Shown here one piece after another: positions 2,014-25,282 of a stretch of DNA of 64,000 nucleotides. The notes beneath the pieces are model-generated. The model saw only the letters and a program-made list of their open reading frames with translations, was not told the origin of the DNA and searched no databases. Both the position numbers and the translations under genes were made by a program. How positions within the stretch are numbered: position 1 is the stretch's first letter; every line of letters begins with the position of its first letter. The stretch comes from Chitinophagaceae bacterium (GTDB lineage: Bacteria; Bacteroidota; Bacteroidia; Chitinophagales; Chitinophagaceae): positions 5,778 through 69,777 of the forward strand of contig DAOLIV010000004.1 of the NCBI GenBank assembly GCA_035328345.1. The letters are read 5' to 3'.

Positions 2014-3315
2014 TTAGTGTTTAATAATCTTTTGTATAGCGATTTCACCATTGCAGGTAACTCTCACAAAATAGAATCCTGAAGATAGTTGGCTAACATT
2101 CATGGTTTCTGTCTGGCTACTACTGGCACTTTCAATTCTTTTTGCAACCTGGCCATTTGCCTGAAAAATCTCATAAATAACTTTCTTATTCTGCCAGTTG
2201 GTTGGAATTGTTATTCTTAATTCTGATGAAACAGGATTAGGATAGGTAACAATATTTACAGTAGCTTCTGATTGCTTACTGATCCTTATAACCCTTGTTT
2301 CAGAGTACTGAGCTTTTTCATCAATATCTACTGAACGAAGTCTGTAGTAAACTATAGCTGTCTGAAAATTACTCACATTATCAGTGTAGGTATAGTTTTT
2401 TTGATCAGTTGAATTACCATATGCGAATACCATCCCTATATCACTGTAATTGCTTCCATCTGTACTTCTTTCAATTACAAAATGGCTAACGTTTATCTCA
2501 GATGCAGTACTCCACTTCAGATCAACCTTATTGTTGTTATTCAAGGTGGCTGTAAATGCAGTTAGTTTAACCGGCAAAGTTGAACCAGGATAAGCAAAGC
2601 CTTTCATATATAAGCTATGCTGCCTGCTCGAAGAAGAGGATACAATGGTTAACGTACCATAGCGTACTGTTAGTGAAGAAATATTATTATTTTTTGCAGT
2701 GAACATATTATTCAGGTAAGAGGTATCAATACCGTTTCTTTCTATACCAAGAACATTTTGCCCGATATAATCTCCGGGTAAAATTTGTAACACTGAAATA
2801 TCAGGATTTGTCATCAGGTAATTCATTATTGAACCCACTCCGGTATTAATGCGGCAAAATTCTTTAAGAGTAGCATTTCCATCAATATCAAGTGCCGTGG
2901 CATTAACTGTGGGCATGATATACGAGTTAGTTGTGTTATGCTCATAGAATTTAATGGTAAAAACCGCATAAGACAAGCCAATAACATTTCCACTTTGTAC
3001 TGCCGGCTGAAAAGCATCCTTGTAACCGGTACCATTTGAGTTGTCATCGATTTTGCTCACTTTGGCTCCGTTCACAAGACTATCGATACTAATTACAGCA
3101 TCAACATTATTATCGACATTTGAAAAAAGATACTTGGCTCCTGCCTTAAGATCGGTACCAGAGATTAACTGGTAATTATCAAATTTAAGACCGTATGTAT
3201 TACTGCTTCCTCCACCAGATCCGCTCTGTGCTTCGCAGAATATGCTTATGCTAAAACCCAAAATCAACATCAGGGGCTTTAGCATGTTCTTTTTAAAAAG
3301 TAAAACTGTTTTCAT
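2014..3315 (-). CDS. T9SS-secreted protein: signal peptide, uncharacterised ~200-aa domain, LPVKL Ig-like domain, type A C-terminal sorting domain
   Basis: C-terminus TYPNPVSSELRI...LSSGFYFVRV...QKIIKH is a typical T9SS CTD; signal peptide ending CEAQ. ATG at 3315 (the track uses GTG at 3318). Confidence 0.9.
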   Translation of the reverse strand: MKTVLLFKKNMLKPLMLILGFSISIFCEAQSGSGGGSSNTYGLKFDNYQLISGTDLKAGAKYLFSNVDNNVDAVISIDSLVNGAKVSKIDDNSNGTGYKDAFQPAVQSGNVIGLSYAVFTIKFYEHNTTNSYIMPTVNATALDIDGNATLKEFCRINTGVGSIMNYLMTNPDISVLQILPGDYIGQNVLGIERNGIDTSYLNNMFTAKNNNISSLTVRYGTLTIVSSSSSRQHSLYMKGFAYPGSTLPVKLTAFTATLNNNNKVDLKWSTASEINVSHFVIERSTDGSNYSDIGMVFAYGNSTDQKNYTYTDNVSNFQTAIVYYRLRSVDIDEKAQYSETRVIRISKQSEATVNIVTYPNPVSSELRITIPTNWQNKKVIYEIFQANGQVAKRIESASSSQTETMNVSQLSSGFYFVRVTCNGEIAIQKIIKH

Positions 3316-21382: not shown

Positions 21383-22237
21383 ATGCAAAAAAGACAAGTA
21401 GATGTAGTAGTAATTTCGGATATTCACCTCGGAACCTATGGATGCCACGCAAAAGAGCTTCTTAATTATCTCCGTAGTATTTCTCCGCAGATCCTAATTC
21501 TTAATGGTGACATCATTGATGGCTGGCAATTCAGCAAAAGATACTTTCCGCCTACTCATATGCAGGTAATTAAAGAGATACTTGACCTGGTCGGTTCAGG
21601 AACAAGAACAATTTATATTACCGGTAACCACGATGAGATGCTGAGGCGGTACACAGATCTTCACCTGAATAATTTTCAACTTACCGATAAACTGGTTATG
21701 GAGATCAACGGCAAAATGGCCTGGATCTTTCACGGCGATGTATTTGATAACACCACAAAAGGCAGTGCAAAGATCATTGCCCGTTTGGGCGGTCATGGTT
21801 ATGACTGGTTAATATTAATGAACCGGTTTATTAACTGGTGTTTGAAAAGAATTGGTAGATCCAAAATGAGCTTTAGTAAGAAAATTAAGAATGGTGTAAA
21901 AAAGGCCGTCGCATGGATCGCTGATTTTGAACAAACGGCTGCAGAACTGGCGATAGAGAAAAAATATGACTATGTGATCTGTGGCCATATTCATCAGCCT
22001 CAGAAAAAATTATTTGAAACAAAAAACGGGAAAGTAATTTACATGAATAGTGGTGATTGGGTGGAAAACCTTACTGCTCTTGAATATAGTAATGGAGATT
22101 GGTCAATTTATCAATATAATGAAGCTGAATTTACCGGTGCCAGTGTTATAAAGATGACAAAGAAAGCAGCTACACCGAATGTGGTAACTGACCAGGTTGG
22201 TTTATTCATTAACTCACTTCGCCATATAAAGGAATGA
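21383..22237 (+). CDS. Calcineurin-like metallophosphoesterase of the LpxH/PlcP group (probable P-starvation phospholipase C)
   Basis: SDIHLG, NGDIIDGW, GNHD, FHGD, CGHIH, NSGDW. Confidence 0.85.
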   Translation: MQKRQVDVVVISDIHLGTYGCHAKELLNYLRSISPQILILNGDIIDGWQFSKRYFPPTHMQVIKEILDLVGSGTRTIYITGNHDEMLRRYTDLHLNNFQLTDKLVMEINGKMAWIFHGDVFDNTTKGSAKIIARLGGHGYDWLILMNRFINWCLKRIGRSKMSFSKKIKNGVKKAVAWIADFEQTAAELAIEKKYDYVICGHIHQPQKKLFETKNGKVIYMNSGDWVENLTALEYSNGDWSIYQYNEAEFTGASVIKMTKKAATPNVVTDQVGLFINSLRHIKE

Positions 22238-23244
22238 AAATTTTTTACGCAGTACAGGCTACCGGCAATGGCCATATCAGCAGGGCGATGGAACTATTAC
22301 CCCACCTTCAGAAATATGGTTCAGTTGATATTTTTTTAAGCGGCGACAACAGTAACCTGGCATTGGATGCACCGATAAAATTCAGAAGCAAGGGGATCAG
22401 TTTATTTTATAATTGTAATGGTGGTCTCGATTACTGGGAAATGCTGAAAAAATTCCAACCTCTGCGAGTCAAACAAGAAATCCGTGACCTCCCGGTTGAA
22501 AAATATGACCTTGTGCTGAATGATTTTGAATATATCACTTCAGCTGCATGTGTAAGAAAAAAAATTTCTTCGATACATTTTGGTCACCAGGCGAGCTTTC
22601 AGTCCTTACACACACCCCGGCCTTTAAAAAAGAATTCTACAGGTGAGTGGTTGCTGAAAAAATACATCAAAGCCGAACATCATGTGGGTTTACACTTTAA
22701 AAAATATGATGATTTTATATTTACAGCGATTGTAAAGGAAGAAATATTGAAAGCTGATCCCCGTGACCTTGGTTATTATACAGTATATCTCCCTTCATAT
22801 TGTGAAAAACAACTAATAGATATTTTCTCAAATTTTATCGATTTCAAATTTCAGATTTTCAGTAAAGAAACATCAGCGCTTAAAACAACCGGAAATATTA
22901 CATTTATTCCTGTCAATAAACAGTTATTTAATCAAAGCCTGATCAACTGTTCGGGCATCATTTCAGGCGGAGGGTTTGAAACTCCTGCAGAGGCCTTGCA
23001 TCTTGGCAAAAAAATCATGGTAATTCCGATAAGGGGTCAGTATGAGCAGCTGTGCAATACAGAAGCTTTATCCAGGTTAGGTATTACCTGTTTACCTTAT
23101 ATCGAAAGGAACTTCGCCGGCATTTTTAATGAATGGGTACAATCGTCAACTCCAATACAAATTGATTATTCTGATTCAATACCGGACTGTTTAAATCATA
23201 TCTTTTCAACAGTCGAGTCAGAAAACAAACTTCAAACTGTTTAA
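22234..23244 (+). CDS. GT-B glycosyltransferase (MJ1255/VC2487-like), translationally coupled to the phosphoesterase
   Basis: GNGHISRA, GGGFETPAEAL, GQYEQ; ATGA overlap at 22234-22237. Confidence 0.85.
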   Translation: MKIFYAVQATGNGHISRAMELLPHLQKYGSVDIFLSGDNSNLALDAPIKFRSKGISLFYNCNGGLDYWEMLKKFQPLRVKQEIRDLPVEKYDLVLNDFEYITSAACVRKKISSIHFGHQASFQSLHTPRPLKKNSTGEWLLKKYIKAEHHVGLHFKKYDDFIFTAIVKEEILKADPRDLGYYTVYLPSYCEKQLIDIFSNFIDFKFQIFSKETSALKTTGNITFIPVNKQLFNQSLINCSGIISGGGFETPAEALHLGKKIMVIPIRGQYEQLCNTEALSRLGITCLPYIERNFAGIFNEWVQSSTPIQIDYSDSIPDCLNHIFSTVESENKLQTV

Positions 23245-23253
23245 TTATCCCCC

Positions 23254-23293
23254 AAAAAAAACCACCCCGCTGCCTGTCCTGTGGCGGGGTGGT
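23254..23293 (-). terminator. Intrinsic terminator, minus-strand polarity
   Basis: 10-bp stem ACCACCCCGC/GCGGGGTGGT followed by 8 U on the minus strand only. Confidence 0.85.
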
Positions 23294-23368
23294 AACTGCA
23301 TGAGAAAATCTGCTCTCTGACGAAACTTACTAACGCCAGATTACTGCAACCGGGACGAAGAAAAGAAC
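23254..23368 (-). ncRNA. Putative phosphate-regulated small RNA (~115 nt)
   Basis: Minus-strand terminator with no minus-strand CDS to serve; upstream CATCTTTA -7-like box and four 11-bp repeats in the same geometry as two other promoters in the island. The 5' end is estimated. Confidence 0.6.
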
Positions 23369-23373
23369 TTAAG

Positions 23374-23430
23374 TAAAGATGCCCGCCTTTTGTTACCCTG
23401 CCGTTATCCAATAGTTAAGGAACAATTATT
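23374..23430 (-). promoter_or_regulatory. -7-like box (CATCTTTA) plus 11-bp-period repeats at 23392, 23403, 23414, 23425
   Basis: GTTACC, GTTATC, GTTAAG, ATTATT on the plus strand; 10-nt gap to the box. Confidence 0.65.
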
Positions 23431-23476
23431 AAAAGCTGCAGCAATTTTTCTATAAGGATTTCGTTAAAAACTTAAT

Positions 23477-23515
23477 ATTACTTAATTGTTAATTTTATGT
23501 AACTTTAGTGTTACC
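23477..23515. promoter_or_regulatory. Four 11-bp-period repeats (ATTACT, GTTAAT, GTAACT, GTTACC)
   Basis: Start positions 23477, 23488, 23499, 23510; they overlap the track's 23486 start, suggesting the real start is further downstream. Confidence 0.5.
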
Positions 23516-23527
23516 AATCGTACACAA

Positions 23528-24742
23528 TTGAAAATCAAGGTCTACATATTGATTTTTCTGCTACCCTTACTTTCTAAAGGCTGGTTTGCCGGAGCTCAGT
23601 CTGCAGATCAGAGGGTGAAATTTGATTTTTATGGCGATCCGGTTGAGCTTGTCATTAACCCTTCCTTACTTATCGACTTTGGGTCTACGATTTCTGAAGA
23701 AGCGATACATAACTTCTATGAAAATATTGATAACAGCCAATATGAGTCGCTCATAACTTCATTAAAAAACTGCAAGACAAAATACCAGCTTGATGATTGG
23801 CTCTATTATCAGCTTATAAGAAAAACAGTGCAGCAAATCAGTCCGAAAGAAAGTAACTACTATAGATATACACTGTACAAATGGTTCTTATTGAACAAAT
23901 CAGGTTATGACGCAACATTAAGTTTGTGCGACAATCAGTTGTTGTTATATGTTCAGAGTAACGAAGAAATATATAATATTCCTTTTCACACAAAAAATGG
24001 CAAACAATACGTTTGTCTGAATTATCATGATTACGGCGGGAATATAGATTTTACCAAAAAGAATTTTACAGAGCTTCCTTTTTATTTTTCAGAAGGCTAT
24101 AAAGCGTTTACTTATAAAATCACACAGCTTCCTGAATTTAAACCGGATAGCTATTTTGAAAAGGATATCAAATTCAATTACTATCAAACGGATTATCATT
24201 TCAAAGTTAAGCTAACCCCACAGGTGCAGACCATATTTGCCAATTACCCGGTGGTTGATTACAGCTACTACATGAATATACCTCTGAGTAAAGAAACTTA
24301 CTATTCACTCATTCCTGAACTCAAAAAAATCATGAAGGGAATGAATGAAAAAGAAGGAGTTGATTTTCTGATGCGTTTTACCAGGTATGCTTTTATATTT
24401 CAACCAGATATTAAGGTGTTTGGCGCTGAAAAGAGATTATCACCTGAAGAAACTCTCTTGTATAACAATAGTGATTGTGAGGACAGAGCCGCTTTGTTCT
24501 TTTACCTTGTAAAGGAAATATATAACCTTCCCATGCTGGTCCTAACTTATCCCAAACATGTCACAATTGCTGTAAATTTTCAAAAACCAATAGGAAATAC
24601 GATCACCTATAACGGAAAGAAATATTCAGTTTGCGAACCAACACCGCAAAAAAGAGATCTGAAATTAGGTGAGTTGCTTCCCCAGCTGCGCAAAACGCCT
24701 TATGAAATTGCGTATGAATATAACCCACTAAAAAATCAATAA
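23528..24742 (+). CDS. Exported protein with C-terminal transglutaminase-like / LapG-like cysteine motif
   Basis: Signal peptide; SDCEDRAALF followed by PKHVTIAV. TTG start at 23528 is my estimate (track: 23486). Confidence 0.7.
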   Translation: MKIKVYILIFLLPLLSKGWFAGAQSADQRVKFDFYGDPVELVINPSLLIDFGSTISEEAIHNFYENIDNSQYESLITSLKNCKTKYQLDDWLYYQLIRKTVQQISPKESNYYRYTLYKWFLLNKSGYDATLSLCDNQLLLYVQSNEEIYNIPFHTKNGKQYVCLNYHDYGGNIDFTKKNFTELPFYFSEGYKAFTYKITQLPEFKPDSYFEKDIKFNYYQTDYHFKVKLTPQVQTIFANYPVVDYSYYMNIPLSKETYYSLIPELKKIMKGMNEKEGVDFLMRFTRYAFIFQPDIKVFGAEKRLSPEETLLYNNSDCEDRAALFFYLVKEIYNLPMLVLTYPKHVTIAVNFQKPIGNTITYNGKKYSVCEPTPQKRDLKLGELLPQLRKTPYEIAYEYNPLKNQ

Positions 24743-24754
24743 CCTACGGCTTTA

Positions 24755-25282
24755 TCAGAAGTTATCTGTTTTAATACGCTGTCCATTTGAATCGTATTCT
24801 TCCTTTCTAATCAACCTGCCATTTTCATCATAGTACTCCCATACTCCGCTATATAATCCATCGTGATACTCCCCTTTGCTCTTTACCTTACCATTTAAAT
24901 AATAATTTACTGCATCTCCCTCAAACTTTCCATCCTCCTTTAAATGATTAATAAATACTGCCTGCCCATTCGGGTAATATTGGGAAAAGAAAGTCCGGAT
25001 ATCATTTTTTGTAATAATTACCTGTCTCACTTTTTCTGAAGAATCACGCATCACCTGGCACAGTGTTGAATCCTTCTTATTAATATAATATGAAGCTGTC
25101 ACAAATTCTCTTCTGAAGTAAGGCTTGGTATGCGTACTGTCGCTATTCCTGATAATCTTTTCAAGCCAGCTATTATTTAATTTATTATTTACAAATGGTT
25201 CATCCGGGTTTCCGGATTTTTTGCATCCAACCAAGAAAATAAATAATACAACCAGTAAGAACTTTAAAAATTTCATCTTCAA
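24755..25282 (-). CDS. Lipoprotein with MORN-variant (YwqK-like) repeats
   Basis: Lipobox LVGC; repeats YYPNGQ, YYLNGKVKSKGEY..G...GVWEYYDENG. Confidence 0.8.
   Translation of the reverse strand: MKMKFLKFLLVVLFIFLVGCKKSGNPDEPFVNNKLNNSWLEKIIRNSDSTHTKPYFRREFVTASYYINKKDSTLCQVMRDSSEKVRQVIITKNDIRTFFSQYYPNGQAVFINHLKEDGKFEGDAVNYYLNGKVKSKGEYHDGLYSGVWEYYDENGRLIRKEEYDSNGQRIKTDNF

Follow-up and report, generated by a model that had tools for sequence, protein, structure and literature searches.

A predicted small RNA gene of an undescribed RNA family of Chitinophagaceae in a putative phosphate island

Comparative sequence analysis identifies the minus strand of positions 23370-23254 of the window (the whole stretch of 64,000 nucleotides analysed here) as a real non-coding small RNA (sRNA) gene, predicted to be transcribed independently, of an undescribed family restricted to Chitinophagaceae. 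A promoter of the response-regulator type and a terminator belong to the predicted gene alone, its structure covaries, and it is kept without its neighbours; the proposal of an independent minus-strand sRNA gene, made in a reading of the sequence alone, was borne out in this respect. Our overall explanation, which we hold to be moderately probable, is an independent Chitinophagaceae sRNA of about 117 nt which a regulator activates under phosphate scarcity and which acts by pairing at start codons. The features of the gene are listed below.

23392-23428, minus strand: four direct TAAY boxes with an exact period of 11 bp (TAAT at 23428-25, TAAC at 23417-14, 23406-03 and 23395-92)
23374-23381, minus strand: -7-like promoter box CATCTTTA, a degenerate form of the Bacteroidota TAnnTTTG
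23254-23370, minus strand: predicted sRNA transcript of ~117 nt, from full-length matches of covariance models R1 and R2 in relatives
23363-23370, minus strand: 5'-terminal octamer AAGUUCUU, nearly invariant in alignments A4, A5 and A7
23312-23347, minus strand: central imperfect hairpin, from single-sequence folds and covariation
23295-23307, minus strand: invariant single-stranded core UUUCUCAUGCAGU, the candidate seed, between the central hairpin and the terminator
23254-23292, minus strand: intrinsic terminator with a 9-bp stem (23292-23284 with 23270-23262), a 13-nt loop and U8 at 23261-23254

The gene lies in a spacer of 240 nt between two plus-strand genes, a glycosyltransferase gene (GT; 22234-23244, Pfam Glyco_trans_1_3) and an ORF of 418 aa (23486-24742), which is described as a secreted protein and has no Pfam match. 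The terminator is found 10 nt past the GT stop, and its hairpin proper starts 17 nt past this stop. On the minus strand the arms of the stem read CCACCCCGC (23292-23284) and GCGGGGUGG (23270-23262). On the plus strand, A8 stands before the hairpin and UAACUGCAUGAG, without any U-run, after it; the hairpin is thus a terminator in one direction only, that of the minus strand. The closest upstream minus-strand ORF (24755-25282) is located beyond the 418-aa ORF. A GC-rich minus-strand terminator with an 8-U tail where no minus-strand coding sequence ends, as well as a nearest minus-strand coding sequence at 24755 behind a plus-strand gene, had been noted in the sequence-only reading, and both are directly readable from the DNA. 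A simple terminator scan missed the element only because its loop limit was 8 nt. In alignments of homologs 94-97% of the terminator cells are paired, as compared to ~40-50% in controls with slid partners. Changes on both sides of the stem occur at 9/9 pairs in alignment A4 and at 7/8 pairs in A7, and none of 500 shuffled controls reached this covariation. The U-tract is on the sRNA strand in every homolog, including those in which the sRNA gene is inverted.

A BLAST-type search of relatives matched the stretch at full length in nine further genomes of the same genus, and the same-genus homologs were used to build the covariance model R1; a second covariance model, R2, carries a central hairpin annotated by hand. 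With R1, matches were obtained in 34 of 301 genomes and 20 of 151 genera of the family, with E values from 1e-20 to 4e-3; the conservation in relatives that had been suggested as a check was thus found. Seven non-carrier Chitinophagaceae genomes still revealed no sRNA under laxer filters. Outside the family, no true match was present in 301 order-level and 401 class-level genomes, and two weak order- and class-level matches were rejected as homologs, both being devoid of the invariant blocks. The sRNA is single-copy in its carriers except for one genome (G280), where two copies (C197:7643-7767 and 2940-3040, E 6e-9 and 7e-4) lie on the same strand ~4.7 kb apart. Rfam 15 searched at gathering score with the whole window matched no family, at E <= 10 the region 23100-23600 gave chance-level matches only and no relevant family, and full-text literature searches found no paper describing this sRNA, in line with the earlier remark that it was not recognised as a described RNA.

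The genomic surroundings of the sRNA are conserved, even though no single neighbour is. In 29 of 30 family loci a gene of what we call the island (GT, plcP, 418-aa, 483-aa, phosphatase, histidine kinase HK or response regulator RR) is found within 1.5 kb of the sRNA. The island comprises a PhoB-like regulator, a PhoR-like kinase, an enzyme of the alkaline-phosphatase superfamily, a plcP-like gene with the GT, the 418-aa secreted protein, a 483-aa lipoprotein and a TonB receptor. Thirty-nine of 80 GT loci carry the sRNA just downstream of the GT stop, at a distance of no more than ~115 nt in most loci, 160-290 nt in several and ~1 kb in one. The carriers that have a name are all metagenome-assembled genomes; GT loci of named Terrimonas and Niabella isolates gave no sRNA match within 1.5 kb. 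The sRNA is convergent with GT in most genomes, and with the HK gene where it is adjacent to HK (L044, L047). Moreover, it is kept without plcP-GT at loci L014, L023, L026, L030, L033, L036, L044 and L047, and at L017, where the 418-aa neighbour is missing. At loci L042 and L043 of genus g143 (1501-1618) the unit including promoter and terminator is co-directional with plcP-GT, inverted locally as a whole. Retention upon loss of either neighbour and inversion in one genus argue for an independent gene rather than for a part of a neighbour's UTR.

The 5' end of the predicted RNA was placed according to the -7 box and the point where conservation starts, the 3' end in the U-tract. The 5' octamer reads CAGUUCUU in nearly all other genomes and is predicted to be single-stranded; no such octamer follows the -7 box at the other island promoters, so that it is a feature of the RNA and not of the promoter. 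The central hairpin consists of a basal helix (UUGC/GCAG) and an apical helix (CUGGCG/CGUCAG), closed by the loop GUUAGUAAGU in the genus of the window and GUUAGCAGUU in most genera. In the R2 alignment ~79% of its cells are paired versus 37-48% with slid partners, and compensatory changes are seen at 10/10 pairs, which we regard as moderate support since this alignment was fitted to the model and is biased towards structure. The core UUUCUCAUGCAGU, 13 nt long and invariant or almost so in ~60 distinct homologs, includes the anti-AUG triplet CAU; its complement is ACUGCAUGAGAAA. Invariance within the sRNA is confined to two blocks, 8 nt at the 5' end and the 13 nt of the core, both predicted unpaired. 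Concerning the seed proposed from the sequence alone, it is present as stated, but the conserved stretch, UUUCUCAUGCAGU, is longer than described: AUUUUCUCAUG occupies 23309-23299 on the minus strand, and the longer stretch AUUUUCUCAUGCAGUUA extends over 23309-23293.

No ORF is conserved: the frame opened by the single AUG of the sRNA stays open across the terminator, and the lengths of the indels between homologs are not divisible by three; a transcript of ~115 nt without credible ORF had indeed been anticipated. As a candidate for a small protein, a 56-aa TTG ORF (23241-23411) was rejected: it lacks a Pfam match, begins ahead of the promoter and overlaps with the terminator. With a free 5' tail, a hairpin, an unpaired core and a Rho-independent terminator, the predicted anatomy is that typical of trans-acting, base-pairing sRNAs.

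The promoter is conserved as well. The -7 element resembles TAnnTTTG, the -7 motif of Bacteroidota, and several homologs carry a fuller box, ...CTTTG. Across ~20 genera the upstream regions of homologs, aligned in register, give the consensus TTAAT-N6-nTAAY-N7-TAAY-N7-TAAYA-N10-(C)ATCTTT(A/G)C-N2-4-CAGTTCTT. Out of 56 distinct upstream regions of homologs, 46 fit a strict pattern that demands three boxes and the -7 box, and 43 have the full set of four boxes and the -7 box; of 200,000 windows drawn at random from the genome, only one fits the three-box pattern. Between the last TAAY box and TTT(A/G) the spacing is always 18 nt, as it is at the plcP promoter, GTAAT-N-GATGTTTG. The same boxes with the same spacing are found at the promoter of the island TonB receptor (TBDR) and at that of plcP, and when the 3.85-Mb genome was scanned with a promoter matrix, the best non-self matches included the island TBDR (in two overlapping registers) and plcP. 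The four 11-bp repeats and the box upstream, seen in the sequence-only reading, are read directly and kept in register across ~20 genera; likewise, the geometry it had ascribed to two further island promoters recurs there, in box period as well as in the spacing between boxes and -7 element.

Regulators of the OmpR/PhoB family bind direct repeats one helical turn apart. The four TAAY boxes probably serve the PhoB-like regulator of the island, a member of the OmpR family, as binding sites in tandem. The weakness of the -7 box and the lack of a -33 element fit dependence on an activator bound to the boxes. In the mechanism that we propose, the weak -7 box would require an activator on the four 11-bp-spaced TAAY boxes, the best candidate being the PhoB-like response regulator whose gene lies at a distance of 4 kb, and transcription would start ~4 nt after the -7 box.

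The link to phosphate comes from the island. The best NCBIfam matches of the island RR are PhoB models, under their cut-offs (TIGR02154, 226 bits versus 296; NF053854, 217 versus 270), and those of the HK are PnpS/PhoR, likewise under the curated cut-offs. In this 99.5%-complete genome PstB (TIGR00972) has no match above the cut-off, the best one reaching 146 bits versus 343. The genome thus has a PhoBR-like system but apparently no high-affinity Pst phosphate transporter; phosphate sensing would then be non-canonical, and a pst promoter could not be used as a Pho-box control. In F. johnsoniae a 'PhoBR operon' cluster is strongly induced by Pi depletion; it comprises a GT, PhoR, PhoB, a TBDT with PF07715/PF13715/PF14905 and lipoproteins (PMC8115612). 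The island of the window is homologous to this cluster, and its receptor has the same trio of domains, PF07715/PF13715/PF14905. Judged from homology and shared promoter geometry, it is likely that the island regulator places the sRNA under phosphate-starvation control, together with the phosphatase, plcP-GT and the TonB receptor. Upon phosphate scarcity the sRNA would be made along with the island phosphatase, the plcP-GT lipid-remodelling operon and the TonB receptor, and it probably regulates other genes during phosphate starvation.

How the sRNA might do so is suggested by its core. UUUCUCAUGCAGU would pair across start codons of the type (CUGY)AUGAGAAA, mainly those of exported proteins and especially of SusC-like receptors, and pairing of core and start would block the initiation of translation, while the phosphate-island receptor, with the start AUGUUUUUA, would escape masking. 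Based on computed pairing, we consider this start-codon mechanism possible but tentative. The sequence-only reading had already seen the seed as complementary to the starts of exported proteins. ATGAGAAA starts are real: 46 genes of the genome begin in this way, 36 of which encode a signal peptide (OR 9.2, p 4e-12). However, the three window genes named at the time, 45521 (+), 62149 (-) and 9457 (-), which start ATGAGAAA(G/A), offer the seed only 8-9 A/U-rich pairs. Genes with signal peptides as a class pair with the seed no better than other genes (p 0.33).

Receptor genes do stand out. Mean seed pairing is -9.45 kcal/mol for the 30 Plug-domain receptor genes versus -7.54 kcal/mol for other genes (p 2e-5), and about 9 of the 30 start AUGAGAA; the island TonB receptor, starting AUGUUUUUA, is with -4.9 kcal/mol among the worst-pairing receptors. 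When tried on the SusC-like starts of four other Chitinophagaceae genomes, 53 in total, the seed has a mean of -9.48 kcal/mol versus -5.44 +/- 0.72 for 300 shuffles, none of which, including the 98 with CAU, matched the real seed. For generic genes mean pairing is -6.81 kcal/mol and the excess over shuffles is smaller (z = -2.6). The best-pairing SusC-like sites read CUGUAUGAGAAA and reach -19.6 kcal/mol, and at codon 2 the invariant C of UUUCUCAU favours AGA (Arg) over AAA, which is commoner; pairing with most AUGAGAAA starts is limited to 9-12 A/U-rich base pairs. Just upstream of the AUG, SusC-like leaders are enriched in A[CT]TG[CT] and TGC-N2-3-ATG, which could explain the invariant GCAGU next to CAU. 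Sites at or below -12 kcal/mol on SusC-like starts number 8/40 in two non-carrier versus 11/40 in two carrier genomes; receptor starts of non-carriers being equally complementary, there is no signal of co-evolution, and a U-rich seed that contains CAU might match such starts incidentally.

The SusC-like leader motif deserves mention in its own right. In four Chitinophagaceae genomes (L161-L240) it reads …ACGAUUGCUUU-AUG or …CAACUGCURU-AUG, and TGC-N2-3-ATG precedes 28% of SusC-like genes as compared to 3% of all genes. It looks like a family-wide translational control element.

Genome-wide scans and ortholog comparisons gave no individual conserved target of the sRNA. Allowing one mismatch at most, the 15-nt seed complement does not occur elsewhere in the genome, and scanning the window for seed sites yielded none at gene starts, only the antisense strand of the sRNA itself. 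The complement of the 5' octamer, AAGAACTG, is found at 11 gene starts versus 15.7 expected, hence without enrichment. The island genes (RR, HK, phosphatase, plcP, GT, 418-aa, 483-aa, TBDR) were rejected as targets, with background energies in up to 104 orthologs. The genome's best site, at -21.5 kcal/mol, is a continuous 15-bp complement (with G:U) to the core on contig C40 (5709-5725), in the 5' UTR of a gene with tandem Usp domains, 13-29 nt upstream of it; it is species-specific or due to chance. As a conserved target this UspA-like gene was rejected, 11 homologs (9 likely orthologs) scoring only -9 to -13. An identical 17-mer within a CoA-transferase ORF indicates that sites of the UspA type arise by chance.

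These results have to be weighed against other explanations of the locus. The most serious one retains a real regulator-dependent RNA which does not act at envelope or SusC-like start codons and instead reaches one or a few specific targets elsewhere by means of its 5' end CAGUUCUU, its hairpin loop or its core, or else binds or titrates a protein, for example an RbpB-like RRM protein. The RNA has three conserved single-stranded elements, of which the 5' octamer and the loop are left unexplained by anti-AUG pairing, and the motif CAGUU stands at the 5' end, again in the core and, in most genera, in the loop, as would be expected of repeats bound by a protein. RbpB binds FopS and GibS in Bacteroides (PMC11697453). 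The same explanation gains from the finding that no conserved individual target was detected and that receptor starts of non-carrier genomes are equally complementary. It is weakened by the 13-nt core, which occupies a position classic for a seed and matches SusC-like starts far better than shuffles do, by the loop of the window's own genus, GUUAGUAAGU, where CAGUU is missing, and by genome-wide scans that gave no alternative target. All in all we consider it unlikely.

Action in cis on the convergent plcP-GT operon, whether as antisense RNA, as a collision or processing signal, or as a hairpin terminating or stabilising the plus-strand operon, is highly improbable. Transcripts reading through from plcP-GT would be perfectly complementary to the sRNA, and read-through into the sRNA gene is plausible, as no plus-strand U-tract follows the hairpin, which starts so close behind the GT stop; the convergent arrangement in most genomes points the same way. 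Yet the sRNA persists at the loci without plcP-GT listed above, is co-directional with GT in L042 and L043, and is invariant in blocks of 8 and 13 nt, not evenly as perfect antisense would allow. Two findings also speak against a hairpin that merely terminates the plus-strand operon, named beforehand as a refutation: the U-tract is on the sRNA strand in all cases, and the unit has its own conserved promoter of the activator-dependent type. Least probable, and in our view barely credible, is a DNA-level regulatory region without functional RNA, in which regulator sites and a spurious promoter are combined with a terminator for the neighbours. The intergenic region does contain a putative divergent promoter for the 418-aa gene as well. 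Nevertheless, conservation extends 117 nt past the promoter, with covarying helices, invariant unpaired blocks and a strand-specific U-tract, and the unit moves and inverts as a whole.

An sRNA pairing at start codons, the reading that we prefer, would have relatives in function within its own phylum. In Bacteroides, FopS and GibS prevent translation of susC by pairing close to the start codon; its authors state that they submitted FopS to Rfam (PMC11697453). FopS and GibS of Bacteroides thetaiotaomicron share with the window sRNA a phylum without Hfq and ProQ, a single-stranded conserved seed and a Rho-independent terminator (PMC11697453). They repress SusC-type mRNAs at the start codon, whereas the seed of the window sRNA fits SusC-like starts statistically and its targets are predicted. 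In Rfam there is no match in sequence or structure between them. FopS has 14 copies and the window sRNA one; the seed of FopS is at the extreme 5' end, that of the window sRNA between hairpin and terminator; and FopS has canonical sigma-ABfr promoters, as compared to the activator-dependent four-box type located in a phosphate island. Among known sRNAs the window sRNA would, by analogy, work most like FopS and GibS, being a member of neither family.

A similar regulatory logic is known from enterobacteria, where OmrA and OmrB, studied by Guillier and Gottesman in 2006, are reportedly activated by EnvZ-OmpR and repress the mRNAs of TonB-dependent receptors and other outer-membrane proteins. The proposed logic in common is an OmpR-family regulator that drives an sRNA acting at translation starts of TonB receptors and thereby remodels the outer membrane. 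OmrA and OmrB differ by their unrelated sequence (no Rfam match) and their phylum; no Hfq is involved in the case of the window sRNA, and its presumed signal is phosphate in place of osmolarity or envelope state.

Across all bacteria, only a handful of RNAs are known to regulate phosphate metabolism (PMC11522486), and our full-text literature searches found no phosphate RNA regulator described for Bacteroidota. PhoS of Bacillus velezensis and B. subtilis, a starvation-induced RNA of 66 nt from the 3' UTR of phoR, activates phoP translation and is stimulated by PhoP (PMC11522486); sRNA132 of Haloferax is starvation-induced as well (PMC6560208), and EsrL of E. coli is referred to as a phosphate-induced sRNA through a citation in PMC11522486. 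With PhoS, EsrL and sRNA132 the window sRNA has only the phosphate-regulatory theme in common. As compared to PhoS it has its own promoter, no common sequence and a different phylum, and its pairing with the RR start region is at background energy, whereas PhoS pairs with the phoP mRNA.

Soil, rhizosphere, freshwater and wastewater, habitats in which growth is limited by phosphate, harbour Chitinophagaceae in large numbers. If the masking prediction were true, SusC control of the FopS type would extend beyond gut Bacteroides and would be tied to nutrient stress rather than to the carbon source, the set of outer-membrane transporters would be shifted towards the island receptor, which is without a site, and a phosphate counterpart of the OmrA/B or RyhB logic would exist in a phylum without Hfq. 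The full chain, in which a PhoB-type regulator drives an sRNA that masks many SusC-like and exported-protein starts and would be the first phosphate-starvation riboregulator of Bacteroidota, we judge somewhat unlikely. The locus nevertheless offers a clean testable unit, with a four-box promoter grammar for the Pho-type regulator of the family, an RNA present in one copy, whose core of 13 nt is invariant, and a defined prediction as to which mRNAs are masked.

Two further sites resemble the promoter of the sRNA. On contig C2 (~209887-209947) a box-array-like promoter with a score of 21.1, ending ATCTTTGC, precedes a TonB receptor of 711 aa, which is followed by two small exported proteins; this receptor may be a further member of the regulon, and we left it unused as support for the phosphate link, as its neighbours have no obvious phosphate function. 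Within the window a second conserved block, 23470-23500, is located upstream of the 418-aa gene. It reads TTAACAATAAAGTAATATTAA on the minus strand, and on the plus strand TTAAT repeats followed by TAATTTTA, resembling a divergent promoter of the same box type. Judged from this block, which is kept in genomes of the same genus and at locus L033, the Pfam-less secreted-protein gene is probably co-regulated with the sRNA.
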